Shown here piece after piece: positions 15,676-50,920 of a stretch of 52,091 bases of DNA (position 1 is the stretch's first letter; the number at the start of each line of letters is the position of its first letter). The translations under genes were made by a program, and so were the position numbers. The notes below the pieces were generated by a model. It was not told the DNA's origin. It did not search any database and saw only the letters and a list, made by a program, of their open reading frames with translations. The stretch spans positions 1 through 52,091 of the forward strand of contig JBEBTS010000001.1 of NCBI GenBank assembly GCA_040393665.1, given 5' to 3'. Source of the DNA: Conexibacter woesei (GTDB taxonomy: Bacteria; Actinomycetota; Thermoleophilia; Solirubrobacterales; 70-9).

Positions 15676-16818
15676 TCACGGCTCCACCCTGATCAGGCTG
15701 GGGCTGGGTTGGCGGTCGATCGGCAGGCCCTCTTCCTTCCACCGCCGGACCCGCTTGCGGAGCTGGAAGAAGGCGGCGACCCCGGTCGGGATCGGCAGCC
15801 AGAAGGCGACCAGGCGGTAGATCAGGATGGCGGCGAAGACCTCCGCCTCCGGGAAGCCGAACAGCACGAACACGCCGATCATGCCGGCGTCGACCGCGCC
15901 GACGCCGGCCGGGACGAACGGGATCAGGTTGGCGACCATCCCGAGGAAGAAGCCCATCACCACCACGCCGAACGGCACCTCGATCCCGAAGGCCTTGAAG
16001 GAGGCCCACAGGATGCCGATGTTCGCGGCCCAGAACCCGACCGCGCCGACGATCGCCAGGCCGGCCCGGGTCGGCGCCGTGACCAGCTTGAGCGCGGCCC
16101 GCACCCCGTCGGCGACGGTGACCGGCACGGTCGCGAGCTTGGAGAGGAAGGCGACCCCGGGCCGACGGTCGGCGTAGTAACGGATCCGCCGCTCGATGTC
16201 GCTCGGCACCAGGGCCAGCGCCAGGCCGAGGATCATCACCACCCCGGCGATCGCGGCCGGGACGATCGTGAGCGACACGGCGGTCCCGCCATGCAGGATC
16301 CCGGTGCGGAGCAGCACCCCGAACACGACCACCGCGAGCGGGTAGAAGAGGTAGTGGAGCACGATGAAGGCGACCATCCTCGTCCCCACGTCGCGCCGCA
16401 CCATGCCGCCCTGGCGCAGGGCCCAGTAGGTCAGCACGACCCCGCCGGCGCCGCCGGCGGAGAACAGGAGGGTCGCGGCGAAGCCGGCCATGTTGATCTC
16501 GTACGCCTCGCCCCAGGTGATCGGGAAGGCCTCGCCGCCGACCACCGCGCGGAACAGGGCGATGTAGGTGATGAAGGAGAGCACGCAGAAGCCGACCGCG
16601 ACGCCGACGTAGACCGCGTTGGCCTCCCCCAGCATGCCGATCGCGTCGCCGAACCCGGCGAGCTTGGGAAGCAGGAAGTAGATCCCGACGACCAGCAGGA
16701 TGATCACGACCGTCGTCTGGATCGCGGCCCGGGTCGAGATCACGGGGAGGCCGTCGCCCGCCTCCTCCTCCGGCTCGACCGTCGGCTCCGAACCGGCCGG
16801 TTCAGGTGCCACTGGCAA
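15676..16818 (-). CDS. LPG-synthase-TM / flippase-like (UPF0104) membrane protein
   Basis: 380 aa, polytopic, with ...MVANLIPFVPAGVGAVDAGMIGVF... characteristic of the lysylphosphatidylglycerol synthase TM-region family. No aminoacyl-transfer domain is present. Confidence 0.8.
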   Translation of the reverse strand: MPVAPEPAGSEPTVEPEEEAGDGLPVISTRAAIQTTVVIILLVVGIYFLLPKLAGFGDAIGMLGEANAVYVGVAVGFCVLSFITYIALFRAVVGGEAFPITWGEAYEINMAGFAATLLFSAGGAGGVVLTYWALRQGGMVRRDVGTRMVAFIVLHYLFYPLAVVVFGVLLRTGILHGGTAVSLTIVPAAIAGVVMILGLALALVPSDIERRIRYYADRRPGVAFLSKLATVPVTVADGVRAALKLVTAPTRAGLAIVGAVGFWAANIGILWASFKAFGIEVPFGVVVMGFFLGMVANLIPFVPAGVGAVDAGMIGVFVLFGFPEAEVFAAILIYRLVAFWLPIPTGVAAFFQLRKRVRRWKEEGLPIDRQPSPSLIRVEP

Positions 16819-17761
16819 TCGCCTCGAGTCGCCGGAGCCCGTTGTTGACCTGCTCGACCAGGGGCCGGGCCAGCGGCTCCCCCTTGCGCACCAGCAGGAC
16901 CACGGCCCCGCCCGCGAGGAGGTCGGTCACATAGTGCTCGCCCAGGTAGACCAGGGCGAAGGCGAGCGATCCCGCGTATCCCCAGCCGAGGGCCCGCTCC
17001 ACCCGGTTGCCGGCGTCGCTCAGCAGGATCGCCGCCATCAGGGCGGTCGCGAAGTGGAGCGACGGCATGGCCGCCCACGGGTTCGAGGCGAGGGTGCCGA
17101 AGGCCCGGGTCCAGATCGGCCCCCAGATCTTCTCGCCGAACTCGACCATCACCCGCTTGATCTCCTCCTCGGTGTACCCGTTCTCGGAGGCCCACCACGG
17201 CGGCGCGGTCGGCACCGCGAAGTACATGGCGCAGCCGATGTCGAACACGGCCGCCATCTGCCTCGCCGAATGCGGGAAACGGTCGTTGTGCCGGATCAAG
17301 ATCCAGAACAGCGCCGCGTAGGGCTGGACGAACCAGAACCAGTGGGTCCAGGCCGAGAGCTGGGTCAGCTTCTGGCCGAAGCGGCTGTCGTGGAGCGCGC
17401 GCTGGAGGCGGGCGTTGGGCAGCCGGCCGCGACCGATCCACCGGTCGACCTTGATCGGGTACTCGATCCGCAGTCGTTCGCGCAGCCGCTCGGGGTCGTC
17501 GTAGGGAAGCTCGTGGCTGACCGCGAAGGCCCACATCTGACCGGCGAACAGGGCGAGGTCGCGCCGCCGGGAACGGGGCCAGAGCACGGCTATCGCCACC
17601 GGGGCAGCGACCGTCGAGGCCACCGTCACGGTCATCGGGATCTTCAGCTGCCGCCGGACGTGGGGCACGATCACGGCAGCCGCGATCGCGGCGAAGGCAC
17701 CTGCCCGGACGGCGGTGCGGGGACTGGGTACCCGGGACCTGAGCACTCTGGGCATTCTCAT
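16802..17761 (-). CDS. PAP2_3-type (inositol-phosphotransferase-like) membrane phosphatase-superfamily protein
   Basis: AMPSLHFATAL and GEHYVTDLLAG motifs. The start is taken at ATG 17761 (MRMPRVLRS...). The upper part of track ORF 16802..18052 overlaps the ctaC-like gene on the other strand. A 17-nt overlap with the downstream gene suggests an operon. Confidence 0.75.
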   Translation of the reverse strand: MRMPRVLRSRVPSPRTAVRAGAFAAIAAAVIVPHVRRQLKIPMTVTVASTVAAPVAIAVLWPRSRRRDLALFAGQMWAFAVSHELPYDDPERLRERLRIEYPIKVDRWIGRGRLPNARLQRALHDSRFGQKLTQLSAWTHWFWFVQPYAALFWILIRHNDRFPHSARQMAAVFDIGCAMYFAVPTAPPWWASENGYTEEEIKRVMVEFGEKIWGPIWTRAFGTLASNPWAAMPSLHFATALMAAILLSDAGNRVERALGWGYAGSLAFALVYLGEHYVTDLLAGGAVVLLVRKGEPLARPLVEQVNNGLRRLEAIASGT

Positions 17762-17809
17762 CGGGAGACGACAGGGTATGTGAGACGCCGCTCGTCCGCC
17801 GCTTGCGAT

Positions 17810-17815
17810 TAGAAT
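17810..17815 (+). promoter_or_regulatory. -10-like TAGAAT (shared TAGAATG..GGCC motif, copy 1)
   Basis: GATTAGAATGGCCCCCGTCTTG. The hexamer overlaps the annotated ATG 17814 and lies 10 nt upstream of the in-frame TTG 17826. Confidence 0.3.
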
Positions 17816-18608
17816 GGCCCCCGTCTTGCTGCCTCGTTCAAGAAAACCCGTGTCCCTGCTCACCGCGCTCGCCGCCGCTCTGGTCGGACTGGCCGCCTCC
17901 GCCACGCCGGCTATGGCCCTTTCGCTGAATCCCGAGGCTGGGTCGCCCGGGATAGAGAAGGTCAACACCCTGCATTGGATCCTCTTCGTGGTCCTGGTGA
18001 TCGTGGTCGTGGCCGTCAACCTGGCCATCCTCCGGGCGGCTCGCCCCCGCACCCGGCATCACGTGCGGGCCGAGGGCAAGGCCCCGAGCCAGCTCAAGGT
18101 CGGGATCGGCCTCGGGGTCGTCGCCGTGGCGATCTTCGTCACCGCCACCGTCTTCTCCGACAAGTCCCGCGAGGTCCCGGCCAGCGTCCAGACCGTCGCC
18201 GGGCTCGATCAGGGACGTCCGCTTCCGATCCGCACCACGGGCCAGCAGTGGCTGTGGCGCTTCGACTACCCCAACGGCGCGTTCAGCTACCGCCGCCTGG
18301 TGGTGCCGACCGGCGTCACTGTCGCGCTCGGGCTCCGCTCGATCGACGTGGTCCACGGTTGGAACGTGCCCTCGCTCACCGGCAAGGCGCAGGCGGTCCC
18401 TGGCAAGACCAACACCGTCTACTTCCGCGCCGACGAGGAGGGCGTCCACAAGGGCCGCTCCTCCGTCCTCAACGGCCAGGGCTACTCGACGATGCAGATC
18501 GAGGTCGACGTCGTCTCCCCGCAGGAGTACGAGAGCTTCATCGCCCAGCAGAAGGCCGACATCCAGGACGCCCAGGACACGGTCGAAAAAGAGATTGCGA
18601 GCAACTGA
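17814..18608 (+). CDS. cytochrome oxidase subunit II-like protein lacking the CuA ligand set
   Basis: Signal peptide, two TM helices and a cupredoxin domain (QQWLWRFDYP, DVVHGWNVP). These are colinear with the bona fide CtaC at 28302..29135, but the CAELCGIGHTTM block reads SSVLNGQGYSTM. The start could be TTG 17826. Confidence 0.8.
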   Translation: MAPVLLPRSRKPVSLLTALAAALVGLAASATPAMALSLNPEAGSPGIEKVNTLHWILFVVLVIVVVAVNLAILRAARPRTRHHVRAEGKAPSQLKVGIGLGVVAVAIFVTATVFSDKSREVPASVQTVAGLDQGRPLPIRTTGQQWLWRFDYPNGAFSYRRLVVPTGVTVALGLRSIDVVHGWNVPSLTGKAQAVPGKTNTVYFRADEEGVHKGRSSVLNGQGYSTMQIEVDVVSPQEYESFIAQQKADIQDAQDTVEKEIASN

Positions 18609-18614
18609 GTTCCC

Positions 18615-20309
18615 ATGAGCACCTACCCCACCACCGTGCCGCCGACCCGCCCCGAGCTCTCCAGCCAGGGCCCCAAATCGCGACCCGCCCGCTGGATCGA
18701 GCTGGCGACCAGCCCCGATCACAAGGTGATCAGCCTGCTGCTGGTCTCCGCTGCCTTCGGCTCGATCTTCCTGGCCGCCCTCGAGCTGCTGCTCACCCGG
18801 GCCCAGCTCGCGATCCCGGAGAACGTCTTCCTCAACGCGGTCACCTTTGACCGGCTGCTGAGCGTCTACGGGACGACCTCGATCTTCCTGATCGCCCTGC
18901 CGCTCGTGCTCGGCCTGCTCTACTACGTCGTCCCGCTCCAGATCGGCGCCCGCGGCACCGCCCTCCCGCGCCTCGGCCAGATCGGCCTCTGGCTGTTCAT
19001 CTTCGGCGGCTTCCTGCTGTACGGCTCGTTCCTCTTCACCCCGCCCGAGGCCGGCATCAACCCGCTGCCGCCCTTCTCCGAGCTCGCGTTCACCCCGAAC
19101 AACGGCGTCGACGTGTGGATCGGGGCCACCGGCCTGGTCACCCTCGGCCTGCTGCTGGTCGCGATCGACCTGATCACCACGCTGCACAACCTCCGCGCCC
19201 CCGGCATGGCCTGGCGCCGCGCGCCCTTCTTCGCCTGGGCCGCCCGCATCGTCACCTGCCTGTTCGTCGTGGTCGCCCCGATCTTCCTCGCCGCCATCAC
19301 CATGCTGATGCTGGACCGGCGCTACGGCGGCGGCTTCTTCGCCGGCTCCGAGGGCGGCTCCCCCATCCTCTGGCAGCACTTCAGCAACATCTTCTTCACC
19401 GCCGTCTACATGATCGTCGCGGTCGGCTTCCTCGCCGCCATCGCCGAGATCGTCCAGACCTTCACCGGCCGTGAGATCCAGGGCCGCAAGACCGTGATCG
19501 GCTCGCTGGTCGCGATCGCCGTGGTCGGCACCCTCGCCTGGACCCAGAACATGGTCACGGCGCCGATCCCGAGCGGCTGGAAGTACTACGGCATGATCAT
19601 GTCGATCGCGCTGATCGTCCCGGTCGGCCTGATCTTCTACAACCTGATCAGCACCGTCGCCGCCTCCGACTTCCACATGCGGGCACCTCTGCGGTTCGCC
19701 CTGGGCGCGCTCTCGCTGGCCTCGCTGGGCCTCGCCGTCGAGGTGATCCACTCGACCGTCGCGATCGGCACCCAGCTGAGCGAGACCTACGACGCCTGGG
19801 CCGCGACCCACTTCGCCCTGATCGGCTTCGTTCTGTTCGGCGGCTTCGCCGCGATCAGCTACTGGTACCCGAAGATGACCGGCGTCCAGCTGAACGAGGA
19901 CCGGTCCCGGATCTCCTTCCAGGTCATGTTCCTCGGCGCGGTCGTCGCGCTGCTCCCGCTCTTCGCGGCGGGCCTCGAGGGCCAGGTCACCGACGCCTAC
20001 CGCTTCTACGGCGACCAGGGCGTCGACGTCTGGAACCTGATCGCCTCGATCGGCACCCTGATCCTGTTCGTCGGCGTCGTGCTCGCCGTCGGCAACCTGA
20101 TCAAGAGCCGCGAGGAAGAGCCGGCCGTCACGCCCGACCCCTGGGGCGGCGACTCGCTCGAGTGGCTCGCGCTCTCGCCGCCTCCGGCCCACAACTTCGA
20201 CGTCCTCCCGGACGTCCGCAGCACCCGGCCGATGCGCGACATCCGCGAGGCCGTCCGTCGCCGGGACTCCGAGGCCACTGCGGCCAGTGAGTCCCAGCCG
20301 GTAGCCTGA
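18615..20309 (+). CDS. haem-copper oxidase subunit I-like protein with 5 of 6 canonical His ligands substituted
   Basis: 564 aa, COX1 length, and colinear with CtaD (26351..28261): YVVPLQIGARGTALPRL, NLRAPGM, ETY...FVLFGG, WYPKMTG. Metal-ligand and proton-channel residues are replaced (see findings). Confidence 0.85.
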   Translation: MSTYPTTVPPTRPELSSQGPKSRPARWIELATSPDHKVISLLLVSAAFGSIFLAALELLLTRAQLAIPENVFLNAVTFDRLLSVYGTTSIFLIALPLVLGLLYYVVPLQIGARGTALPRLGQIGLWLFIFGGFLLYGSFLFTPPEAGINPLPPFSELAFTPNNGVDVWIGATGLVTLGLLLVAIDLITTLHNLRAPGMAWRRAPFFAWAARIVTCLFVVVAPIFLAAITMLMLDRRYGGGFFAGSEGGSPILWQHFSNIFFTAVYMIVAVGFLAAIAEIVQTFTGREIQGRKTVIGSLVAIAVVGTLAWTQNMVTAPIPSGWKYYGMIMSIALIVPVGLIFYNLISTVAASDFHMRAPLRFALGALSLASLGLAVEVIHSTVAIGTQLSETYDAWAATHFALIGFVLFGGFAAISYWYPKMTGVQLNEDRSRISFQVMFLGAVVALLPLFAAGLEGQVTDAYRFYGDQGVDVWNLIASIGTLILFVGVVLAVGNLIKSREEEPAVTPDPWGGDSLEWLALSPPPAHNFDVLPDVRSTRPMRDIREAVRRRDSEATAASESQPVA

Positions 20310-20314
20310 GTCCC

Positions 20315-21253
20315 ATGATCGAAGGTGCCGACGCGCGATCCTCGCGCATTCGGCAAGACACCCCGGCGGCCCGCAGCGGGCTGCGCTTTGACGTGGTCCC
20401 GTTGATACGGGACTACGTCACGTTGACCAAGCCGCGGATCATCAGCCTCCTGCTGCTGACCACGGTGGCGACGATGTTCGTCGCCCGGCCCTCCGGGCTG
20501 GCCCTCTCCACCATCCTCTGGACCATGCTCGGCGGCTACCTCGCCGCCGGTGGCGCCGGGGCGATCAACCACTACATCGACCGCAACCGCGACTCGCGGA
20601 TGGCGCGGACCAGTTCGCGCCCGCTGGCCAACGGCCGGATCAAGCCCCTCCACGGCCTGATCTTCGGCATCGTGCTCGGCGTCCTCGCCTTCTTCCAGCT
20701 CTGGCTGACCACCAACCTGCTGGCCGCCTCCCTGGCCATGGTCGGCCTGTTGGGCTACGTCTTCCTCTACACCCTGTGGCTCAAGCCGCTGACCCCGCAG
20801 AACATCGTGATCGGCGGCAGCGCCGGCGCGGTCCCTCCCCTGGTCGGCTGGGCCGCCGCCTCCGGCGGGCTCACCTGGGACGCCTTCTGGCCCTTCGCCA
20901 TCATCTTCTTCTGGACCCCGCCCCACTTCTGGGCGCTCTCGCTGATGATCAAGGACGACTACGCCAAGACCGGCGTGCCGATGCTGCCGGTGGTCAAGGG
21001 CGAGGCCGAGACCCGGCGCCAGATCCTGATCTACACGATCTTCATGGTCGGCTTCACCGTCGGCCCCAGCTGCACCGGGCTGCTCGGGCCGCTCTACCTG
21101 TTCTCCTCGATCGTCCTCGGTGCCGTCTACGTCGGCTTCTCCTTCGCGCTCTGGCGCAATCCCAACCCGGGGATCATCCTCAAGGCGTATCTCTACTCGC
21201 TGGCGTACCTGGCGCTGCTGTTCGTCGCGATGGCGATCGACGCGGTCTCCTGA
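20315..21253 (+). CDS. ctaB: protohaem IX farnesyltransferase (haem O synthase)
   Basis: UbiA-fold motifs NHYIDRNRDSRMARTSSRPL and FFWTPPHFWAL; 312 aa. It starts 5 nt after the preceding stop. Confidence 0.92.
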   Translation: MIEGADARSSRIRQDTPAARSGLRFDVVPLIRDYVTLTKPRIISLLLLTTVATMFVARPSGLALSTILWTMLGGYLAAGGAGAINHYIDRNRDSRMARTSSRPLANGRIKPLHGLIFGIVLGVLAFFQLWLTTNLLAASLAMVGLLGYVFLYTLWLKPLTPQNIVIGGSAGAVPPLVGWAAASGGLTWDAFWPFAIIFFWTPPHFWALSLMIKDDYAKTGVPMLPVVKGEAETRRQILIYTIFMVGFTVGPSCTGLLGPLYLFSSIVLGAVYVGFSFALWRNPNPGIILKAYLYSLAYLALLFVAMAIDAVS

Positions 21254-21440: not shown

Positions 21441-21731
21441 ATGAGCCAGAACCAGATCACCAACCCGACCGAGACGATCGAGCTCCCCACCGCCACCTGG
21501 GCCCCCGCCGTGTTCGCCTTCGGCGTGCTCGGCCTCGTCGCCGGCACCTTCGCCTCGGGCTTCATGTTCCCCGCCTGGTGCTACGCCGCCGTCGGCGCGG
21601 TCCTGGTGCTCTTTTCGCTCCGCAGCATGATCAACCGCGGCCGCCGGTCCTTCTACGGCCTCCCTCGCGAGACCGAGGACGTCCGGGCCGAGCTGCCGGT
21701 CGAGAGCTTCAGCGCTCCGACCCGGGACTGA
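21441..21731 (+). CDS. small two-TM membrane protein
   Basis: 96 aa, PAVFAFGVLGLVAGTFASGFMFPAWCYAAVGAVLVLFSL. It is the last gene before a strong terminator. Confidence 0.6.
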   Translation: MSQNQITNPTETIELPTATWAPAVFAFGVLGLVAGTFASGFMFPAWCYAAVGAVLVLFSLRSMINRGRRSFYGLPRETEDVRAELPVESFSAPTRD

Positions 21732-22400: not shown

Positions 22401-23114
22401 ATGCTGAAGATCAAGTCTCTCCACAAACTTCCCGTCCTCCTCGCCTCCATCGGCCTGCTCGGCATCCTCGCCGCCGGCTGTGGCACCAACACCTCGGCCC
22501 CGATCCACGGTGACTTCCAGGATCGCGGACGCCAGCTGTTCAACGCCAAGTGCGGCACCTGTCACATCATGGCCCAGGCTGCCTCCACCGGCACCCAGGG
22601 ACCGGATCTCGACGCCGCCTTCGCCACCGCCCGCGAGATCGGCATGGACGAGGACACGGTCAAGGGCATCGTCCGCGCCCAGGTCATCCGCCCGATGCCG
22701 TCGAACCCGAACTTCCCCGGCATCTCCATGCCGGCCAACATCGTCACCGGCAATGACCTCGAGGACGTCGCCGCCTACGTCGCCCGCTACGCCGGCGTCC
22801 CCGGCGCCCGTCCGCCCCGCGCCCCCGGCCGTGGCCCCGGCGCCCAGGTCTTCGCCAACAACGGCTGCGGCAGCTGCCACATCCTCGCCGAGGCCCAGTC
22901 CGCCGGCACGCTCGGCCCGAACCTCGACGAGGTCATCCCGAGCATGAGCCGCGACCAGATCCACGAGGCCATCGTCGATCCGAACGCGTCCAAGCCGAAG
23001 GGCTACGAGAACGTCGACATGCCCGACCGGTTCGGCAACCTGCCGCCCGATCAGCTCGATCAGCTGATCGAGTTCCTCATGTCATCGGCAGGGTCCGATG
23101 GCCAGAGCAACTGA
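22401..23114 (+). CDS. dihaem c-type cytochrome lipoprotein
   Basis: Lipobox LAAGC after a signal peptide, and two CXXCH motifs (CGTCH, CGSCH), each followed by a distal Met region. Confidence 0.9.
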   Translation: MLKIKSLHKLPVLLASIGLLGILAAGCGTNTSAPIHGDFQDRGRQLFNAKCGTCHIMAQAASTGTQGPDLDAAFATAREIGMDEDTVKGIVRAQVIRPMPSNPNFPGISMPANIVTGNDLEDVAAYVARYAGVPGARPPRAPGRGPGAQVFANNGCGSCHILAEAQSAGTLGPNLDEVIPSMSRDQIHEAIVDPNASKPKGYENVDMPDRFGNLPPDQLDQLIEFLMSSAGSDGQSN

Positions 23115-24054
23115 GTCGATCCGCTCCCGGATTACCGGGTTCCGCCTATCGCCTGAGCGTTATGCACTGATCACGCTCGTCGCATTGATCACGCTGACCG
23201 TGATCGTGCTCACCGGCGCCGCCGTGCGACTGACGGCATCCGGCCTGGGATGCCCCGACTGGCCCAAGTGCTACGACCAGTACGTCGCCCCGGCCCAGAT
23301 CAACGCCTGGATCGAGTACGGCAACCGGCTCGTGACCGGCGTGGTCGGCATCGCGGTCATCGCCGCCTCCCTCCTCGCCTTCTTCCGCCGCCCCTATCGC
23401 TGGCACCTCGCGGTGATCGGCGTCCTCCTGCCGCTCGGGGTCATCGGGCAGGCAATCCTCGGCGCGTTCGTCGTCTACTACCACCTGCCCCCCGAGCTGG
23501 TGATCTTCCACTTCATCCTCTCGATGATCCTGCTCGACGCCGCCTACGCCCTCTGGTGGTGCTCGCGCCACGAACCGGGAGAGCGACGCTTCTCGCGCGA
23601 CTGGCTGGGCGTGTGGGCCGTCCGGGCCCTGATCCCCTTCGGGCAGCTGACCGTGCTTCTGGGGACGATCTCGACCGCCTCAGGCCCCCATCCTGGCGAC
23701 CACGACTCGGAGATGGTCCGCCGCTTCACCTTCAAGGGCGCCGACACCCTCGAGTGGATCGTCCAGCGCCACGCCGCCTCCGCCATCCTGTTCACGCTGG
23801 CGATCATCACCGTGATCTTCATCCTGCGCCGCCGCGGCGGCGACCGTCGCGCCCAGAGGCCGCTGCTCTTCTGCCTCGGCCTGATCCTCACGCAGATCGC
23901 GGTCGGGGTGATCCAGTGGCAGCTCCACCTCCCCGCCGCGCTCGTCTGGGTCCACGTCGCCCTGGCGACCCTGCTGTGGCTTGGCATACTCTGGTCGGTG
24001 GCCACCGCCGGCCAGATCGAGCCATCGGCCCGGCGCGGCATCAAGTGGATCTGA
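23098..24054 (+). CDS. ctaA: haem A synthase (COX15/CtaA)
   Basis: 318 aa with 8 predicted TM helices, GLGCPDWPKC and conserved His-bearing helices. It overlaps the cytochrome c gene by 17 nt. Confidence 0.9.
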   Translation: MARATESIRSRITGFRLSPERYALITLVALITLTVIVLTGAAVRLTASGLGCPDWPKCYDQYVAPAQINAWIEYGNRLVTGVVGIAVIAASLLAFFRRPYRWHLAVIGVLLPLGVIGQAILGAFVVYYHLPPELVIFHFILSMILLDAAYALWWCSRHEPGERRFSRDWLGVWAVRALIPFGQLTVLLGTISTASGPHPGDHDSEMVRRFTFKGADTLEWIVQRHAASAILFTLAIITVIFILRRRGGDRRAQRPLLFCLGLILTQIAVGVIQWQLHLPAALVWVHVALATLLWLGILWSVATAGQIEPSARRGIKWI

Positions 24055-24819: not shown

Positions 24820-25452
24820 TCAGATGATGTAGATCGCCAGGAACACGATGATCCACATGATGTCGACGAAGTGCCAGTAGATGCTGGGCACCTCGACGCC
24901 GAGGTGGTTCTTCTGCTCCGGGCCGAAGTGGCCGCGGTAGGCGCGGATCGTGGCGAAGGTGATCAGCAGCAGGCCGACGAAGACGTGGGCTCCGTGCAGG
25001 CCGGTGAGGCTGAAGAAGATCGAGCCGAAGGCACCGTCACGGGGAGTGAACCCGATGTGGATGTACTCGTTGATCTGGATGAAGAGGAACGTCGCACCGA
25101 GCAGCCAGGTCAGGGTCAGGCCGAGCTTGAGGCCGGCGTGGTTGCCCCGCTTGATCGCCTCGAGGGCGTAATGGATCGTGAAGCTCGAGGAGACCAGGAC
25201 CGCGGTGTTGATGCCGGCGATCAGGACCGGGAGGTGAATCCCCTGCGGCGGCCAGGCCACCGGGTCGACCACGACGCGGAGGAAGAAGTACGCCGCGAAG
25301 AACGCGCCGAACAGCATGATCTCCGACAGGATGAACAGCAGGATGCCGAGCACCGTCGGGTCGATCCGCGAGCTCTGGTGAGCCTCCGGAGGACCGTGGT
25401 GGTGATGGTCATCGACGTGACCGGGGCTGGCGGCGATACTTGCGCTTTCCAT
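24820..25452 (-). CDS. ctaE: cytochrome c oxidase subunit III
   Basis: 210 aa from ATG 25452: ...FILSEIMLFGAFFAAYF...FFSLTGLHGAHVFVG...YWHFVDIMWI. The track ORF extension to 25614 overlaps the upstream gene. Confidence 0.92.
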   Translation of the reverse strand: MESASIAASPGHVDDHHHHGPPEAHQSSRIDPTVLGILLFILSEIMLFGAFFAAYFFLRVVVDPVAWPPQGIHLPVLIAGINTAVLVSSSFTIHYALEAIKRGNHAGLKLGLTLTWLLGATFLFIQINEYIHIGFTPRDGAFGSIFFSLTGLHGAHVFVGLLLITFATIRAYRGHFGPEQKNHLGVEVPSIYWHFVDIMWIIVFLAIYII

Positions 25453-25454
25453 CT

Positions 25455-26351
25455 CTATGCCTCGTTGCTTTCCGCGTTGGAGCTCTCGTCCGATCCGGCC
25501 TCGCCCTGCGCGACGGCCGCGGCCACCGCTTCCGGCAGGCGGCCGGTCTCGTGGTGAGTGACCGGCTTGTCGGTGATCTCCCGGACCCGGCCCACCAGAT
25601 CGTCCTGCAGCCACTGCGATTCCTCGGCCGCGAGGGTCGAGATCAGGATGTCGTCGACCCGGTAGTGCGCGATCGCGTTCTTGACGGCGCCGAAGGCGTC
25701 GGGGCTCATCGGCTGACCGGTCGCGTCGAAGCCGGCTCGGTAGAGCTCCGCCAGCAGCGCCGCGAGGTTCCGGGAAAGGGTGTTCTCGGAGACCGCGTCG
25801 ACCGTCGGCGAGACGATCGTGAACCGGTGCGGGCGCTCCTTGCCGAGGTTCAGCAGGCGCTCACGCAGGTCCTCGCTCTCCAGGGTCCGGTTGGCGACGA
25901 CCAGGGTGTGGGTCACGTCGAACCGGATCGAGTCCTCCTCGATCCGAACCGGGATGTGGGTGATCTTGGTCTCCGGCTCGAAGGTCAGCTTGGCCCACTC
26001 GAGCAGGTCGCGGAGGGTGAACCCGAACCGCGTGTCGTACAGGCAGGAGAGCAGGACCTCGCTGGGCCGGTGGCTCCGGATCGCGTCGCCGAGCGCCATG
26101 TCGGACTGCGGGTCGAGCACCTCGCCCACCGCCTCGATGCCGAACTCGTCGAGCACGGCCAGGGTCACGTCGACCCGGGCGCGGGCTGCCTCGCGGGCCT
26201 CCGCGGGGTCGAACAGCTGACCGGCCTGCGGCTGGTTCTGCGGGGCGGCCACGACCACGTAGGACGCGTCCGCCGCCTTCTCCCGGACCGCCTCCAGCAG
26301 GAGACGGCCGCCGGCGACCTCGTTGAGGAATATCAGCAGCGGCTGGGCCAT
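25455..26351 (-). CDS. soluble acidic protein with an internal duplication (two USP-like alpha/beta halves), embedded in the cta operon
   Basis: 298 aa with no TM segment. The halves align by eye (LLIFLNE.../TLVVANR...; DAIRSHRPSEVLLS/NAIAHYRVDDILIS; KITHIPV/PVTHHET). Its start shares 1 nt with the ctaD stop (TGATG), and its stop is 2 nt from the ctaE ATG. Confidence 0.75.
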   Translation of the reverse strand: MAQPLLIFLNEVAGGRLLLEAVREKAADASYVVVAAPQNQPQAGQLFDPAEAREAARARVDVTLAVLDEFGIEAVGEVLDPQSDMALGDAIRSHRPSEVLLSCLYDTRFGFTLRDLLEWAKLTFEPETKITHIPVRIEEDSIRFDVTHTLVVANRTLESEDLRERLLNLGKERPHRFTIVSPTVDAVSENTLSRNLAALLAELYRAGFDATGQPMSPDAFGAVKNAIAHYRVDDILISTLAAEESQWLQDDLVGRVREITDKPVTHHETGRLPEAVAAAVAQGEAGSDESSNAESNEA

Positions 26352-28261
26352 CAGGACGCCGCCACCGTGGTCGGCTTGGGCTCGGGCACGGTGGCGCCTT
26401 CCTCGTCACCGGCCATGATGGCGTGACGGGCGCCGGGGGTGCCGTACTCGTACGGTCCGCCGACGACGCGCGGGATCTCGTCGAAGTTGTAGATCGGGGG
26501 CGGCGACGACACCAGCCACTCGATCGAGTTCGCCCGCCAGGGGTTGTTGCCGGCCTTCGGGCCGAACCGCCAGCTGACGATCATGTTGTAGAGGAAGACC
26601 AGCTGGACCGCGCCCAGGAAGAAGGCGGAGATCGAGACGACCAGGTTCCAGTCGCCGTACTGGGAGGCGTAGTCGGCCACCCGTCGCGGCATGCCGTCCA
26701 TCCCGACCCAGTGCATCGGCACGAAGGCCATCCAGGTACCGATCACGGTGCCCCAGAGGTGGATCCGTCCGAGCCGCTCGTCGTACATGCGGCCGGTGAT
26801 CTTCGGGAACCAGTGGTACAGCCCGGCGAAGATCGTGAAGACCGATCCGCCGAACAGCACGAAGTGGATGTGGGCGACGATGAAGTAGGTGTCCGACACG
26901 TGGATGTCGATCGGGATCATGCCGAGCATGACGCCCGAGATCCCGCCGATGGTGAACGTGACGATGAACGCCAAGGCGAACAACATCGCGGTCGAATAGG
27001 TGTGGATCTTGCCGTAGAACAAGGTTCCCAACCAGGAGAAGACCTTGATCCCCGTTGGCACCGCGATCAACATGGTGCTGATCATGATCGGCACCCGGAG
27101 CCAGCTGAACATGCCCGAGACGAACATGTGGTGGGCCCAGACCGAGTAGCTGAGCACGACGATGCCGATCAGCGCGAGCGCCATCAGGCGGTAGCCGAAG
27201 ACCGGCTTGCGCGAGTGCGTCGAGATGATCTCCGAGATGATCCCGAACCCGGGCAACATCATGATGTACACCGCGGGGTGCGAGTAGAACCAGAAGATGT
27301 GCTGGTACGAGATGACGTCGCCGCCCTGGAGGAAGTTGAAGAAGTTCATCCCCAGCACACGGTCGAACAGGGTCATGAACTGGGCGCCCGCGACGAACGG
27401 GGTCGCGCCGACGACCAGCAGCGAGGTCGCCAGCTGGGCCCAGACCATCAGCGGCATCCGCCACAGGTTCATGCCCGGGGCCCGCATGGTGATGATCGTG
27501 ACCAGGAAGTTGAGCGCGGCCGCGATCGACGACGCTCCGGCGAACTGCACGCCGATGTTGAAGAACGTCTGGCCCAGAGGTGCCCCTCCGGCCAATGGCG
27601 CGTAGCCGGTCCAGCCGGCGTCGAAGGCGCCGCCCGGGGCGAGGAACGACCCGAGGAAGATGATGCCGGCGATCGGCAGCAGCCAGAAGCTGAGCGCGTT
27701 GAGGCGTGGGAACGCCATGTCGGGCGCGCCGAGCATCAGCGGCACCACGTAGTTGGCAAGCCCGGCGAAGATCGGGATGATGAACAGGAAGATCATCACC
27801 GTGGCGTGGGTCGAGAACAGCCCGTTGAAGGTGCTGGCCGCGACCACCTGCGAACCGGGCTGTGCCAGCTCGGCCCGGATCAGCAGGGCGAGCAGCCCGC
27901 CGATCAGGAAGAAGAACAGGGTGACGACGATGTACTGGATGCCGATCACCTTGTGATCGGTGTTGAACTTGAAGTAGTCCTGCCAGCGGGTCGCGCCGTG
28001 ATCCGAGTGGTCCTCGGGGATCGTCGGCTTGCCGGCGGCCCAACGGAACCAGTAGTCAAAGGCGCCGAAGCCGAAGAGGAAGCCGAACGGGGCGGTGATC
28101 AGCGGGACGACGACGTGCGGGTAACCGGTCTGCTCCGTCTGGAAGAGCTCGAGCCCGGAGAGCGCACGGAGCGCGATGACGAGCCCGAAACCGAAGCCGG
28201 CGCCGAGCAACAAGCCGAACAGGCCTCGGTACCAACCGGGCTGTCTGAGTGCCATTGCCAT
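26351..28261 (-). CDS. ctaD: cytochrome c oxidase subunit I, A2-type
   Basis: All six His ligands are present (STHATVMIF; YSHPAVY; WAHHMF; VAHIHF). The YS motif with Ala in place of the A1-type HPEVY Glu indicates the A2 subtype. Confidence 0.97.
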   Translation of the reverse strand: MAMALRQPGWYRGLFGLLLGAGFGFGLVIALRALSGLELFQTEQTGYPHVVVPLITAPFGFLFGFGAFDYWFRWAAGKPTIPEDHSDHGATRWQDYFKFNTDHKVIGIQYIVVTLFFFLIGGLLALLIRAELAQPGSQVVAASTFNGLFSTHATVMIFLFIIPIFAGLANYVVPLMLGAPDMAFPRLNALSFWLLPIAGIIFLGSFLAPGGAFDAGWTGYAPLAGGAPLGQTFFNIGVQFAGASSIAAALNFLVTIITMRAPGMNLWRMPLMVWAQLATSLLVVGATPFVAGAQFMTLFDRVLGMNFFNFLQGGDVISYQHIFWFYSHPAVYIMMLPGFGIISEIISTHSRKPVFGYRLMALALIGIVVLSYSVWAHHMFVSGMFSWLRVPIMISTMLIAVPTGIKVFSWLGTLFYGKIHTYSTAMLFALAFIVTFTIGGISGVMLGMIPIDIHVSDTYFIVAHIHFVLFGGSVFTIFAGLYHWFPKITGRMYDERLGRIHLWGTVIGTWMAFVPMHWVGMDGMPRRVADYASQYGDWNLVVSISAFFLGAVQLVFLYNMIVSWRFGPKAGNNPWRANSIEWLVSSPPPIYNFDEIPRVVGGPYEYGTPGARHAIMAGDEEGATVPEPKPTTVAAS

Positions 28262-28301
28262 GTCTTACTTGACCTCCGTAATTTCGAATCGGAACCGGGC
28301 G

Positions 28302-29135
28302 TCAGTCGGCATGGTTGCCGGACCCTTCTTCCTCAACACCACTTCCCTGAATACCTCCGGCGCGCTCCTCGGCCCGCTTCTGCACCTCGAGTGCCTGATC
28401 GGCGGACATCAGGAAAGCCGGTACTTCCGACTTAAGGTTGTTGACCCACTGGTTGTACTTCTCTTCCGACTCGACCACGACCTTGGCCTGCATCGTCGTG
28501 TGACCGATTCCGCAGAGCTCGGCGCACACCAGCTGGAAGGTTCCCTCCCGGTCCGGGGTGACGAGCGCGTTCGTGGTGATGCCGGGGACGTTGTCCTTCT
28601 TGATGCGCCACTCGGGCACCCAGAAGGAGTGGATCACGTCCTGCGCGTGAAGCTTGAAGTCGATCTGCCGGTTGACCGGCACGTGAAGCTCGCCCTCCGC
28701 CCACTTGTTGCCGCTCTCCGGGTAACCGAAGGTCCAGGCGAACTGCTGGGAGTAGACGTCGACCGTGATCGCGTTGCTGTCCTTCTTCTCGATGTCGTCG
28801 AGCACGGCCCAGCTGTAACCGGCCAGGGCGACCACGATCAGGACCGGGATGAGGGTCCACCAGATCTCGAGCTTGGTGTTGCCGTGGATCGGCAGGCCGT
28901 CGCTCTCGTCTCCCGGCTTGGCGCGCCACTTGATCAGGGCGTAGCCGAGGAAGACGCAGACCAGGGCGAAGATGAACGAGGAGACCACGATGGTTACGTC
29001 CATCAACGTGTCGATCGGGCCGGCAGCGGTCGAGGCCGCATCACCGAACCAGTCGAATTGCAGCAGCACGACGGATTGAACCGCGCCGAACGCAAGGGTG
29101 GCCAGGACGAGTTTCAAAATCGGAAGACGAGTCAT
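28302..29135 (-). CDS. ctaC: cytochrome c oxidase subunit II (CuA, no fused cytochrome c)
   Basis: DVIHSFWVPE...CAELCGIGHTTM is a complete CuA site. No CXXCH motif is present. Confidence 0.95.
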   Translation of the reverse strand: MTRLPILKLVLATLAFGAVQSVVLLQFDWFGDAASTAAGPIDTLMDVTIVVSSFIFALVCVFLGYALIKWRAKPGDESDGLPIHGNTKLEIWWTLIPVLIVVALAGYSWAVLDDIEKKDSNAITVDVYSQQFAWTFGYPESGNKWAEGELHVPVNRQIDFKLHAQDVIHSFWVPEWRIKKDNVPGITTNALVTPDREGTFQLVCAELCGIGHTTMQAKVVVESEEKYNQWVNNLKSEVPAFLMSADQALEVQKRAEERAGGIQGSGVEEEGSGNHAD

Positions 29136-46335: not shown

Positions 46336-47508
46336 TCAGTGGTGGTGGCCGTGCGCGGCGGCTTCCGCCAGCTCGCCGCGACTCAACGTCCGGGCCAGCA
46401 GGGCCGCCAGGATCGTGGTGATCGGCACCGCGGCGATCAGGCCGATCGAGCCGACCAGCGTCGCCACCACCTCCTTGGCCACGATCTCCATGTTCACCGC
46501 CCCGCCGAGGCCGAACTGACCGGATCCGAGGATCAGCAGCACCGGCAGGGAGGAACCGACGTAGGCGAGGACGAGGGTGTTGACCGTCGCGCTGACGTGA
46601 TCCCGCCCGACGTCGATCGCCCGGCGGTACAGCTGGCCGACGCTCTGGCGGGGATTCGCCGCCCGGAGGGCGAGCACGGTCGAGGCCTGGCTGATGGTGA
46701 CGTCGTCGAGCACGCCGAGCGCACCGATGATGATGCCCGCGACGACCAGGCCGCTGATCGACAAGCCGGAGTCCCCGACGGAGAGCAGGCTGGCCTCCTC
46801 CGAGCTGAAGCCGGTCAGGTTCGCGGCCTGGGTGAAGACGACCGCCAGGAGGCCGACCAGGAGCAGACTGAAGGTGGTGCCCAGCACCGCCGCGACGCTC
46901 TTCGGCCCGAATCCGTGCGCCAGGAAGATGGTCACCAGCATGACCGCCATCGAACCGGCCAGCGCGACCGCCAGCGGTGGCTTGTGGTCGAGGATCGCGG
47001 GGATGATGAACATCAGCACGATCACCAGGCTGATCGCGAGCCCGACCAGCGACATCGCCCCGCGCAGCCGGCCGAAGAACACGACCAGCAGGGCGAACGC
47101 CACCGCGAGCACGATCAGCGGCTGCTTCCGCTCGAAGTCGATGATCGAGTAGACCGGCTCGCCCCCGGCAGCCGGCATCGAGGCGACCTTGACCCGGTCC
47201 CCCACCCCGAAGACGGTGTCCTGCGACCGGCTGGTGACGTCGACCGGGACCAGGTTCCCCTGCTCCGGCCCGGACTCGATGCGGATCGACGCCTCGCGGC
47301 AGACGACGTCGTCGATCGGCACCGAGCAGTCGGTCAGCTCGATCTTCTCGATCGTCCCGGGCTCGGTCTGGGTCCGGTTGCCGAACTCGAGCTCGGACCC
47401 CTCGCCACCGCCCGGCCAGAGCAGGGCCACCGCGATCACGGTCAGCACCGCGACCGCGACGACCGCGCCGTGGAACCACATCCTCGGATTGAACTCGAAC
47501 CGACTCAC
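46336..47508 (-). CDS. YibE/F-family membrane protein with a C-terminal HGHHH tail
   Basis: 390 aa: an N-terminal TM helix plus a periplasmic beta-rich domain, then a polytopic YibE/F core (...GVLDDVTISQAS...). It ends AAAHGHHH. Confidence 0.85.
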   Translation of the reverse strand: MSRFEFNPRMWFHGAVVAVAVLTVIAVALLWPGGGEGSELEFGNRTQTEPGTIEKIELTDCSVPIDDVVCREASIRIESGPEQGNLVPVDVTSRSQDTVFGVGDRVKVASMPAAGGEPVYSIIDFERKQPLIVLAVAFALLVVFFGRLRGAMSLVGLAISLVIVLMFIIPAILDHKPPLAVALAGSMAVMLVTIFLAHGFGPKSVAAVLGTTFSLLLVGLLAVVFTQAANLTGFSSEEASLLSVGDSGLSISGLVVAGIIIGALGVLDDVTISQASTVLALRAANPRQSVGQLYRRAIDVGRDHVSATVNTLVLAYVGSSLPVLLILGSGQFGLGGAVNMEIVAKEVVATLVGSIGLIAAVPITTILAALLARTLSRGELAEAAAHGHHH

Positions 47509-47565
47509 CGGACGCGGACTATCCCATCCCCGGCGGCGGTTGGGCGCGCCGGGGATGGGCCGAGG

Positions 47566-48840
<1,275 letters not shown>

Positions 48841-48871
48841 CTCGATCCTCCTGTTGTGACAACCCGTTGTA

Positions 48872-48890
48872 AATGAGATCAATTCTCATT
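48872..48890. promoter_or_regulatory. palindromic operator 1 (Zur/Fur-family-like)
   Basis: AATGAGA-TCAAT-TCTCATT is a perfect 7-5-7 inverted repeat in the low-GC divergent intergenic region. Confidence 0.55.
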
Positions 48891-48921
48891 ACTAACAGAT
48901 CGAGGTCCGTTCGCGGCTCTT

Positions 48922-48940
48922 AGTGAGACTGATTCTCAAT
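48922..48940. promoter_or_regulatory. palindromic operator 2 (Zur/Fur-family-like)
   Basis: AGTGAGA-CTGAT-TCTCAAT has the same TGAGA-N5-TCTCA core, and its centre is 50 bp from operator 1. Confidence 0.5.
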
Positions 48941-48985
48941 CTGATATAAAACCCCGGCCCGTCCACCTCAGATTCGGAGACCACC

Positions 48986-50920
48986 TTGCTAGAGCCGTTC
49001 AGCCTTCCCTACGTCCAGGAAGGACTCATCGAGATATTCCTGCTCGCCATCGCCGCCGGCCTGATCGGCTCCTGGCTCGTCCTGCGCGGGCTGGCCTTCT
49101 ACTCGCACGCGATCGGCACCGCCTCCTTCCCGGGGCTCGTGCTCGCGGACGGCATCGGGTTCCCGGCCGCGGCGGGGGCCTTCGGCATGGCGGGCGCGTT
49201 CACCGCGCTGTCCGCCCTCCTGACCCGGTCACGCCGGGCCACCACCGACAGCGTCACCGCACTGACCCTGGTCGCCTGCATGGCCGCGGGCGTGATCCTG
49301 GCCAGCGACGTCTTCAACTCGGGCGCCAACGTCGACACCCTGCTGTTCGGCTCCCTGCTCGCCATCGACTCCACTGACCTCTGGCTGGCCGCCGCGGCGG
49401 CGGCCGTCTCGGCCCTCGCCGTCGGCCTGCTCTCCCACCGCTGGCTGGCCAAGGGGTTCGACGAGACCTCGGCCCGCTCCCTGAACTCGGGCTCGGGCCT
49501 GTTCGACCTCGCTCTGATGACCGTCGTCGCCTTCACGGTGATCGCGGCGCTGAGCGCGGTCGGGGCCCTGCTGGTCGCGGCCCTGATGGTGATCCCGGCG
49601 GCCACCGTCCGCCTCTTCACGCACCGGGTCTCGACCCTGCAGCTGGGCTCGGTCCTGCTGGTGGCGGCGGAGGGCACGGCGGGCCTCTGGCTCTCGGTCA
49701 AGACCAACGCCCCTCCGGGGGCGACCATCGCGGTGGTCGCGGGCGCCGTCTTCGCCCTCGCCGCCCTCGCCCGCCGGCTCCGTCCCTTCCGGCTGATGGC
49801 CCTGGCGGCCACGGCCGGCGCGCTCGGCCTCTTCGCCGCCGGGTGCGGCGGATCCGGAAGCGACCCCGACTCGGGGCAGCTGAAGGTCGCCGCGACCACC
49901 ACCCAGGTCGCCGACTTCGTCGAGCAGGTCGGTGGGGACCGGGTCGAGCTGACCCGCATCCTCCAGCCGAACACGGATCCCCATGAGTACGAGCCGCGTC
50001 CCTCGGACGTCCAGTCCGTCGCGGACGCCCGTCTGGTCTTCCGCAGTGGCGGGCACCTCGACGAGTGGGCCGACCAGCTCGTCGCCGACAGCGGGAGCGA
50101 AGCCGAGGTGATCGACCTCTCCGCCCATCTGCCGGTGAAGCTCCACGGTGGTCACGACCACGAGGGCCATGAGCACGAGGGCGAGGAGTCCCACCAGGAC
50201 GAAGCCGCGCACGGGGACGAGCACGGGCACGAGGATGAGCACGGGCACGAGGGCGAGGTCCACGGGCACGAGGAGGGTCACGACGACCACGACGCGGAGC
50301 ACGATCACGACGCCGCCGACCACGACCACGAGGCGGAGCACGACCACGGGGACGAGGAGGTCGACCCCCACTGGTGGCACGACCCGGTCAACGTGGCCGC
50401 CGCCGTCGGAGAGATCGAGGAGGCGCTGAGCGAAGCCGCCCCCGCCGACGCCGCCCACTTCAAGGCGAACGCCGACGCGTACCGCACCGAGGTGGCCCAA
50501 CTGCAGCGCGCGATCAAGGCCTGCGTCAAGACCGTTCCCGAGGACGAGCGGAAGATCGTCACGGACCACGACGCCTTCGGCTACTTCACCAACCGCTTCG
50601 GCATCGAGACCGTCGGCACGGTGATCCCGGCCCTGACCACCCAGGCCCAACCTTCCGCCGGGGACCTGGCCGACCTCGAGCAGACCATCCGCGACGAGCA
50701 GGTGAAGGCCGTCTTCCCCGAGAGCTCCGTCTCCCCCAAGCTGGCCGAGGCGATCGCTCGCGACACCGGGGCCCGCACGGACTACACGCTCTATGGCGAT
50801 ACCCTCGGCCCGGAAGGGTCCGACGGGGAGACCTGGATCGGGATGATGGAGACCAATGCCGACAACGTCGTGAAGGGGATGACCGGTGGCAAGAGAGGCT
50901 GCGACCTCGGCGATGGATGA
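48986..50920 (+). CDS. in-frame fusion of an ABC-3 (ZnuB/MntB-type) permease and a ZnuA-type metal-binding lipoprotein with a giant His-rich loop
   Basis: Single 644-aa ORF from TTG 48986. Residues 1-~265 form a polytopic permease (..VIPAATVRLFT..). Then comes MALAATAGALGLFAAGC (signal/lipobox-like), followed by a cluster A-I SBP (TTTQVADFV..NTDPHEYEP..HDAFGYF). There is no stop codon between the two parts. Confidence 0.85.
   Translation: MLEPFSLPYVQEGLIEIFLLAIAAGLIGSWLVLRGLAFYSHAIGTASFPGLVLADGIGFPAAAGAFGMAGAFTALSALLTRSRRATTDSVTALTLVACMAAGVILASDVFNSGANVDTLLFGSLLAIDSTDLWLAAAAAAVSALAVGLLSHRWLAKGFDETSARSLNSGSGLFDLALMTVVAFTVIAALSAVGALLVAALMVIPAATVRLFTHRVSTLQLGSVLLVAAEGTAGLWLSVKTNAPPGATIAVVAGAVFALAALARRLRPFRLMALAATAGALGLFAAGCGGSGSDPDSGQLKVAATTTQVADFVEQVGGDRVELTRILQPNTDPHEYEPRPSDVQSVADARLVFRSGGHLDEWADQLVADSGSEAEVIDLSAHLPVKLHGGHDHEGHEHEGEESHQDEAAHGDEHGHEDEHGHEGEVHGHEEGHDDHDAEHDHDAADHDHEAEHDHGDEEVDPHWWHDPVNVAAAVGEIEEALSEAAPADAAHFKANADAYRTEVAQLQRAIKACVKTVPEDERKIVTDHDAFGYFTNRFGIETVGTVIPALTTQAQPSAGDLADLEQTIRDEQVKAVFPESSVSPKLAEAIARDTGARTDYTLYGDTLGPEGSDGETWIGMMETNADNVVKGMTGGKRGCDLGDG

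Follow-up and report, generated by a model that had tools for sequence, protein, structure and literature searches.

Subunit I-like proteins of haem-copper oxidases (HCOs) that lack the metal ligands have a described precedent in Acetobacter, which keeps a ligand-less, 'deranged' COX1-like CtaD together with ctaB; in Degli Esposti et al. 2023 (PMC10715153), a structural, CtaB-stabilising role is proposed for this protein and Matsutani et al. 2014 (BBA 1837:1810) are cited for the Acetobacter case. In A. pasteurianus, ctaB and ctaD carry consecutive locus numbers (APT_01774 and APT_01775), and both are reported as conserved in three complete genomes (PMC5158111). In gNOR, Asp takes the place of one active-site His, and Murali et al. 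2024 (PMC11214002) presented it as the first HCO family with any such replacement; the HCO classifier of Sousa et al. throws out sequences without six histidines (PMC3084760). This work concerns two adjacent genes from Conexibacter woesei (assembly GCA_040393665.1, contig JBEBTS010000001.1, positions 1 to 52,091, forward strand; this whole 52,091-nucleotide stretch is hereafter called the window), namely the open reading frames (ORFs) 18615..20309 (+), named COX1L, and 17814..18608 (+), named COX2L, which encode proteins resembling oxidase subunits I and II.

COX1L is very probably a conserved pseudo-oxidase that is poor in cofactors. An earlier reading of the window, made from the letters alone (the sequence-only reading), had claimed a maintained pseudo-oxidase, neither an O2 or NO reductase nor a pseudogene, and this claim is upheld by the loss of the ligands, by 82 intact copies and by 102 invariant residues.

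Ligand and channel residues of COX1L

18615..20309, + strand: COX1L, a full-length subunit I homologue of 564 aa with 12 transmembrane (TM) helices, PF00115

The intact 564-aa frame, rich in G and C at third codon positions (GC3), had been recognized before; PF00115 covers it end to end (residues 39-483 on profile positions 2-436 of 436; 258.9 bits, E 1e-76), and its GC3 of 0.97 is similar to that of the neighbouring genes. The best solved relatives are the actinobacterial CtaD chains of bcc-aa3 supercomplexes (6adq_F, E 8e-79), and the identity to the CtaD encoded in the window itself (26351..28261, −) is 31%. An AlphaFold2 model built on a 40-sequence alignment has 12 long helices (predicted template modelling score, pTM, 0.79), with Foldseek TM-scores of 0.80 to the actinobacterial CtaD 7q21_D and 0.77-0.78 to subunit I of R. 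sphaeroides, P. denitrificans and bovine mitochondria, so both profile and fold place COX1L among proteins with the HCO subunit I fold. The low-confidence parts of the model are residues 141-157, 385-395 and 458-462 and the C-terminus, the first three being periplasmic loops which usually form the cap over the haem propionates and the Mg site. COX1L scores below the cut-offs of the NCBIfam equivalogs for CtaD/CoxA, actinobacterial aa3 subunit I, QoxB and CyoB, with 355 bits vs 671 for TIGR02891, 313 vs 880 for NF050116 and, among the quinol oxidases, 302 vs 1015 for QoxB and 293 vs 1020 for CyoB.

Residues were numbered against bovine COX1, the sequence of which was checked at 22 numbered positions. 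Ligand positions were read from four independent alignments, namely HMMER against PDB chains, BLASTP, MAFFT with the bovine ruler, and hmmalign to a hidden Markov model built from 70 fully canonical COX1 sequences. All four leave COX1L with one ligand His of six, H399, and the ligands are not restored by the profile alignment. The bovine residues and their counterparts in COX1L are:

H61, haem a ligand: Y85
H240, CuB ligand: T262 (HMMER, MAFFT) or F261 (BLASTP, hmmalign)
Y244, cross-link Tyr: M266, or Y265 in the other TM6 register
H290 and H291, CuB ligands: Q311 and N312
H376, haem a3 ligand: A397
H378, haem a ligand: H399, retained
D91, N80 and N98, D-channel: G114, Y103 and G121
K319 and T316, K-channel: I340 and V337
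W126 and D364, haem propionate contacts: I148 and G385
R438 and R439, haem propionate Arg pair: T459 and D460

The codons of Y85 and H399 are located at 18867..18869 and 19809..19811. The sequence-only reading had already named Tyr85, Gln311, Asn312, Ala397 and the sole retained His399, on which the four alignments agree, as well as the channel replacements of Asp by Gly114, of Asn by Tyr and of Lys by Ile340, which are borne out too. Its replacement of a CuB His by Thr262 stands only as to the loss of the His, the exact residue being T262 or F261 depending on the TM6 register, which is uncertain by one residue; in neither register is there a His within residues 256-270. An equivalent of Glu242 is absent from COX1L in the family alignment with the bovine ruler; this loss and those at W126, D364, T316 and R438/R439 come in addition to the ones that the sequence-only reading had listed. 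COX1L does not carry the six His of a catalytic subunit I (O2 reductases and NO reductases), nor the active-site Tyr arrangement of O2 reductases, for which the partner His240 is missing in both registers, nor the D- and K-channel residues and propionate anchors of A-family oxidases.

Conservation and selection in the COX1L family

The family set comprises 233 full-length members. A first homologue search contributed 115 relatives with 59-98% identity, the named ones all being metagenome-assembled genomes (MAGs) from Solirubrobacterales/Thermoleophilia, and a second search, seeded with P0124, which is 40% identical to COX1L, contributed 117 more; the named members among the 233 are uncultured Solirubrobacterales or other Actinomycetota. 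At least 487 genomes in a scan with one genome per species have a COX1L relative; the best 80 of these all belong to Solirubrobacterales, the conservation being order-wide. Neither the homologue nor the species searches found a cultured host, all named matches being MAGs.

Whether the substitutions recur in orthologues had been asked in the sequence-only reading, and they do: Y85, Q311 and N312 are invariant among the 115 orthologues of the first search (115/115) and H399 is present in 112, with 102 columns invariant in total. The 117 added members go further: in 101 of them none of the six ligand positions holds a His, and A-T-Q-N-D-L is the commonest pattern. The hallmarks of the whole family are R62 (232 of 233), Q311 (228), N/S312 (231) and D460 (226). 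The channel positions are replaced throughout (D91 by G/T/S, N80 by Y, N98 by G, E242 by V/A, T316 by F/V and K319 by I/V), as are the propionate anchors (R438 by T/V, R439 by D in 226 of 233, W126 by I and D364 by G/A), while the position of Y244 holds L, Y, V, A or M.

The near-invariance of Q311 and N/S312 at the CuB positions is what would be expected of a redox enzyme with an unconventional metal site made of Gln311, Asn312, Tyr85 and His399. Such an enzyme is extremely improbable, however: Gln and Asn bind Cu or Fe poorly, in most members an axial ligand is lacking for both haems, and propionate anchoring, CuA or another electron entry, proton channels and a fixed cross-link Tyr are all missing.

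A haem carrier or chaperone would be a different matter. The Tyr85/His399 clade, which includes the window protein, would then bind haem O or A in the old low-spin pocket and store it or pass it to CtaD. This would agree with the retention of Y85 and H399 within the clade, with the almost universal R62, which corresponds to bovine R38, the residue hydrogen-bonded to the haem a formyl group, and with the covariation of positions 85 and 399, which are Y-H in 124 of the 233 members and A/S with L/I in 82. Haem transfer proteins typically ligate haem through Tyr or His/Tyr. The covariation is, as far as the alignments tell, that of coupled former axial positions, and it fits a bound ligand and side-chain packing in a collapsed pocket equally well. 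Against a carrier stand the replacement of the propionate Arg pair by T/V-D, together with that of W126 and D364, and the divergent members without ligand His, which share the same operon context; P0121 and P0124, for instance, have F/L at position 85 and F/W at position 399. We therefore regard the carrier as unlikely. The residual haem site of Tyr85 and His399 that had been suggested in the sequence-only reading is abandoned as a general function of the family, since most of the added members have no ligand His and the Arg pair is replaced.

Of the 103 columns conserved in at least 80% of canonical subunits I, 54 are kept by the COX1L family, and these are mainly the Gly, Pro, Trp and Arg residues of the fold. 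The lost columns concentrate in TM6 (9/13), TM2, TM7-TM10 and the TM11-12 loop (4/4), and bulk is added in the former haem a3 pocket by the changes of G373 to L, G376 to E and V395 to W. Conservation in deep orthologues extends to the cytoplasmic C-terminal tail (508-544), the DHK region at the N-terminus and the loops on the N side, and to none of Y85, Y265, N312, E376, T398 and H399. As the residues of the old pocket change, no new catalytic or ion site is conserved there, and a polar or ion site made of Y85, Y265, Q311, N312, E376, T398 and H399 was rejected because the deep orthologues alter all of these except Q311. What persists in the family, judging by these alignments, is the fold and the cytoplasmic surface.

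All 82 copies of COX1L (81 fetched loci plus the window) are stop-free and near full length, and no signs of a pseudogene (frameshifts, stops or a ratio of nonsynonymous to synonymous rates, dN/dS, near 1) were detected among them. The dN/dS estimate, obtained by the method of Nei and Gojobori (NG86), is below 1 and gives no indication of decay; it amounts to 0.10-0.26 for the closest pairs of COX1L and 0.08-0.17 for those of CtaB, these ratios being only rough because a GC3 of 0.97 compresses dS. The COX1L median over all pairs, 0.40, is probably inflated by the GC3 bias. The gene is under purifying selection.

The short junctions described below (5-6 nt gaps or 4-nt overlaps), which suggest translational coupling, would agree with a frame kept only for ctaB transcription and translational coupling, the protein itself being dispensable. 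The Acetobacter ctaD-like gene was reportedly interpreted in 2014 by Matsutani as inactivated by accumulated mutations. In the case of COX1L this is very unlikely: coupling needs an open frame and not 102 invariant residues, it does not explain the 81 positions shared with orthologues of 40-48% identity, and a dN/dS of 0.1-0.4 together with the family-specific Q311, D460 and C-terminal tail points to selection on the protein.

The CuA-less partner COX2L

17814..18608, + strand: COX2L, a subunit II-like protein with a signal-like N-terminus, two TM helices and a cupredoxin domain (PF00116, 59 bits)

COX2L falls below every NCBIfam subunit II cut-off, scoring 56-63 bits against CyoA/QoxA, where the cut-offs are 241-266. 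The CuA motif H...C-x-E-x-C-x3-H-x2-M reads H...S-x-V-x-N-x3-Y-x2-M in COX2L. In all 81 orthologues the first Cys is S/A, the second Cys is S/N and the second His is Y/F, with the first His and the Met of the site retained in 81/81, so the neighbour had rightly been called a subunit II-like protein without CuA, both Cys and one His being gone throughout.

Gene order around COX1L

20315..21253, + strand: ctaB, haem O synthase (PF01040, 210 bits; NF003349, 350 bits vs a cut-off of 246)
21441..21731, + strand: small membrane protein of 96 aa, with no significant family match, conserved 3' of ctaB
22401..23114, + strand: dihaem cytochrome c (PF00034 in two stretches, plus PF13442)
23098..24054, + strand: ctaA, haem A synthase of the COX15/CtaA family (PF02628, 92 bits)

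COX1L is separated from COX2L by 6 nt (18609-18614) and from ctaB by 5 nt (20310-20314), both gaps being those of the sequence-only reading, whose identification of ctaB is likewise confirmed by the NCBIfam haem o synthase match. The gene order across the 81 loci was read by tblastn with the window proteins. The order COX2L-COX1L-CtaB-small TM protein-cytochrome c-CtaA is kept in essentially all of them, with ctaB directly 3' of COX1L in nearly all loci reaching that far and with the positions of the dihaem cytochrome c and ctaA conserved. The identity to the window proteins is 55-76% for COX1L, 55-84% for CtaB and 61-78% for CtaA, and no convincing terminator was found between the genes of the cluster. 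The 96-aa protein occurs at the same position in nearly all loci extending that far (tblastn, 30-75% identity); in L001, L082, L083, L087 and L090 small unannotated ORFs occupy the position after ctaB. A gene for a CBS protein lies on the opposite strand between the genes of the ~96-aa protein and the dihaem cytochrome c, and PAP2 and LPG-synthase-like genes precede COX2L, also on the opposite strand. The dihaem cytochrome c gene overlaps the start of ctaA by 17 nt, the two adjoin each other in nearly all related loci, and the overlap makes the pair appear translationally linked.

The link with CtaB that had been suggested from the window alone is strongly reinforced by these loci and by distant lineages in which the gene also lies beside ctaB or ctaA. 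P0121 (48% identical) and P0124 have the order COX2L-COX1L-UbiA, P0160 (L086 6001..7641) has COX2-COX1L-UbiA, and in P0125 and P0340 the order is COX2L-COX1L-CtaA-CtaB, with ctaA directly between COX1L and ctaB. The Acidimicrobiales-like P0153 (L085 6001..7677) and P0165 are found in an arrangement with CtaA on the minus strand, followed by CtaB-COX1L-COX3 and then a complete oxidase operon; in these two, whose genes immediately follow ctaB, both haem a His are present and the ligands of haem a3 and CuB are lost. At least one ligand His is missing in 40 of about 110 full-length (at least 480 aa) proteins among the 150 best representatives aligned with hmmalign. Two more proteins, P0172 (L088 6001..7668) and P0206 (L089 3855..5504), were rejected as the same thing as COX1L, since they are located in other clusters and may be odd but active enzymes.

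The + strand ORFs 15709..16848 and 16700..17812 were considered as operon members and rejected as shadow ORFs because they have no family match and lie over genuine minus-strand genes coding for LPG_synthase_TM (15676..16818) and PAP2_3 (within 16802..18052). They give tblastn matches of 38-66% identity in nearly all loci reaching that far; antisense shadow ORFs are typical of very GC3-rich genomes and can mislead operon calling. The Pfam scan, which covered 43 window ORFs and left out a few short ones, detected no Surf1, Sco, Cox11 or Caa3_CtaG.

Origin of the COX2L-COX1L pair

The closest canonical relatives of COX1L are A1-type CtaD proteins of Thermoleophilia (MAGs of Gaiellaceae and Solirubrobacteraceae) with 34-39% identity. 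The median score of COX1L against this set is 313 bits and the best 395, vs 220 bits against the window CtaD. The full canonical pattern RHDHEYHHKHHRR is present in 119/119 of the A1-type relatives, which share with COX1L the tail ...SPPP.HNFD..P...S.RP[LM]RD[LI]R. One of them, P0459 from a Solirubrobacteraceae MAG, belongs to a COX2(+cytochrome c)-COX1-UbiA operon whose genes overlap at their stops and starts, and COX2L matches the subunit II of this operon with 91 bits vs 58 bits for the window CtaC. COX2L and COX1L are descended from a functional A1-type ctaC-ctaD-ctaB operon of Thermoleophilia. In canonical-oxidase relatives, the ctaB located 3' of subunit I (L093 6143..7321; L092 4836..5300) codes for 392 aa and has an extra membrane-like N-terminal part of ~100 aa, which is missing from the window CtaB (312 aa).

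P0129 (L092 3182..4843) looks like an intermediate stage of degeneration, having kept the six His, E242, Y244 and K319 and lost D91, N80, N98 and R438/R439. Upstream of P0129 there is an LPG-synthase gene in the opposite orientation, no subunit II gene having been called there, and ctaB overlaps the end of the P0129 gene. This protein also counts in favour of the haem carrier considered above, as its six His mean that a haem-binding stage existed. The simplest reading is that the cofactors were lost stepwise in lineages respiring via an A2-type aa3 oxidase, the subunits being kept along with ctaB. A neighbour-joining tree of subunit I puts all the degenerate lineages together next to P0129; this grouping is not trusted, as the branches concerned are the longest in the tree and so simple a method is probably affected by long-branch attraction, and a single origin of the Solirubrobacterales, Acidimicrobiales-like and P0160 lineages was not relied on.

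The aa3 oxidase and other genes of the window

24820..29135, − strand: intact, presumably functional aa3 oxidase operon, separate from the COX1L operon
28302..29135, − strand: ctaC, CuA motif kept (CAELCGIGH..M)
26351..28261, − strand: ctaD, A2-type (PF00115, 499 bits), with all six His, Tyr244, K319 and R438/R439
25455..26351, − strand: 298-aa protein without a Pfam or NCBIfam match
24820..25614, − strand: ctaE/COX3 (PF00510, 139 bits)

The window CtaD is of the A2 type, having a YSHPAVY motif and no Glu242 equivalent. It carries an N-terminal extension of ~90-100 residues ahead of the conserved DHK motif, and its full-length matches across the loci are 80-87% identical. The 298-aa protein between ctaD and ctaE looks soluble. 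The stop codon of ctaD overlaps the start codon of the gene for this protein, and most loci encode it in the same place, with identities of 33-74% that are mainly 58-74%; the counterparts in L001 and L090 (304 and 309 aa) are unannotated.

The aa3 operon is located 4.5 kb from the COX1L operon, on the opposite strand and within the same conserved cluster. This proximity, the retained fold and subunit II partner, and the conserved cytoplasmic surfaces, which imply protein-protein contacts, would suit a non-catalytic role outside haem synthesis, for example as an accessory or structural part of a supercomplex or of the A2-type aa3 oxidase, or as a repurposed ion or proton pathway. We find this improbable, given that the pair is tightly coupled to ctaB/ctaA while ctaCDE is on the opposite strand, that no chain of polar residues across the membrane is conserved in deep orthologues, and that G, Y, I/V and F stand where the D- and K-channels have their residues.

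At the far end of the window there is a putative zinc/metal uptake cluster (46336..51716):

46336..47508, − strand: YibE/F membrane protein
47566..48882, − strand: CobW-type GTPase
48986..50920, + strand: 644-aa fusion of an ABC-3 permease and a ZnuA-type binding domain
50886..51716, + strand: ABC ATPase

Proposed function

It is suggested that the COX2L/COX1L pair consists of cofactor-free descendants of a once functional A1-type ctaC-ctaD pair in a lineage whose respiration would run through the separate A2-type aa3 oxidase. Of the old oxidase, the 12-helix fold, the cytoplasmic surface and the partnership with subunit II would remain, and both haems (a and a3), CuB, CuA and the two proton channels would be gone; the subunits would have stayed translationally coupled, as it appears from the junctions, to haem O synthase and in sister lineages also to haem A synthase. 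The pair may be a redox-inactive membrane heterodimer serving as a structural partner of CtaB/CtaA, which would mimic apo-subunit I and stabilise or organise the complex converting haem O to haem A, and/or would be a docking platform handing haem A to the real CtaD. Contact of the pair with CtaB/CtaA, absence of haem from it and any effect on the haem O/A supply or on aa3 assembly are inferred. According to the review by Hederstedt (PMC9145763), CtaA and CtaB form a complex; the review also regards binding of apo-subunit I by CtaA as possible and calls the way in which haem A gets into subunit I unknown.

Taken together with its weaker form, in which the pair merely stabilises CtaB, such a scaffold mechanism has in our estimation an even chance of being right. 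More tentative, and somewhat doubtful, is the version in which the pair is an obligatory cofactor-free mimic of apo-subunits I and II, CtaB/CtaA needing a subunit I-shaped partner for stability or activity and for haem A release. If that were true, this need would explain why the native subunits were kept as a docking module after the takeover by a foreign A2-type oxidase, and the pair would expose a hidden step in the handing of haem A to subunit I.

Several points weigh against a scaffold of this kind. ctaB commonly adjoins oxidase subunit genes, as in cyoABCDE and the B. subtilis cta cluster, so the linkage could be inherited gene order. In the window clade, with its near-invariant and covarying Y85 and H399, something might still be bound where haem a used to sit. 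The partly degenerate subunits I of P0172 and P0206 are found in alternative complex III/oxidase clusters, away from ctaB, which shows that ligands can also be lost without a link to haem O synthase.

Comparison with known systems

The quinol oxidases (bo3 of E. coli, cyoABCDE, and aa3-600 of B. subtilis, qoxABCD) resemble the pair in having a subunit II without CuA and, in the case of cyoABCDE, in that the haem O synthase gene shares an operon with subunits II and I; their subunit I, however, keeps the six His, the Arg pair and the channels, and the COX1L operon has no subunit III or IV genes. Altered active-site ligands and a cupredoxin subunit without CuA are common to COX1L/COX2L and gNOR, but none of the three CuB His is left in COX1L, nor is the haem a3 His, and most of the family has also replaced both haem a His. 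Surf1/Shy1 and CtaM have the same proposed job between haem A synthase and apo-subunit I (PMC9145763). There is no homology to these factors; Surf1 has two TM helices and a periplasmic domain and binds haem A via His, whereas haem binding by COX1L is doubtful. The A1-type aa3/caa3 oxidases of Thermoleophilia share the ctaC-ctaD-ctaB order (P0459, Gaiellaceae CtaD) and differ in possessing all ligand and channel residues and a subunit II with CuA and a fused cytochrome c domain, which COX1L and COX2L do not have.

COX1L relatives are annotated as 'cytochrome c oxidase subunit I' or 'cbb3-type', and counting them as terminal oxidases inflates the metabolic inferences drawn from soil metagenomes. 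Since classifiers discard sequences without the His and gNOR has been called the first family with a replaced ligand, a family as large as that of COX1L was overlooked. Locked to ctaB/ctaA, COX1L and COX2L are a natural system that separates from catalysis any protein-protein role that subunit I may have towards the haem synthases.

The sequence-only reading knew of no described family with this ligand pattern. No description of the actinobacterial family was found in the literature searched, so that part holds; the ligand-less COX1-like protein kept with ctaB in Acetobacter is a published precedent, however, and COX1L is therefore not a new category. In both cases a ligand-less subunit I stays clustered with haem O synthase after another terminal oxidase has taken over, and COX1L shows the same two features, namely ligand loss in a full-length subunit I homologue and a ctaB 5 nt downstream. 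The hosts are Pseudomonadota there and Actinomycetota here, and the two cases are apparently of independent origin, for which the descent of COX1L from an A1-type CtaD of Thermoleophilia argues. The same outcome in Actinomycetota and Acetobacter, an oxidase replaced and its subunit I left beside ctaB, suggests a general dependency and not an accident. Unlike the Acetobacter protein, the COX1L family also keeps a CuA-less subunit II-like partner and spans hundreds of species under measurable purifying selection, and its genome has its own A2-type aa3 cytochrome c oxidase, where the replacement in Acetobacter is a ubiquinol oxidase. What is new compared with this precedent is a family that is apparently independent, far larger, under selection, accompanied by a CuA-less subunit II and present alongside a functional cytochrome c oxidase.

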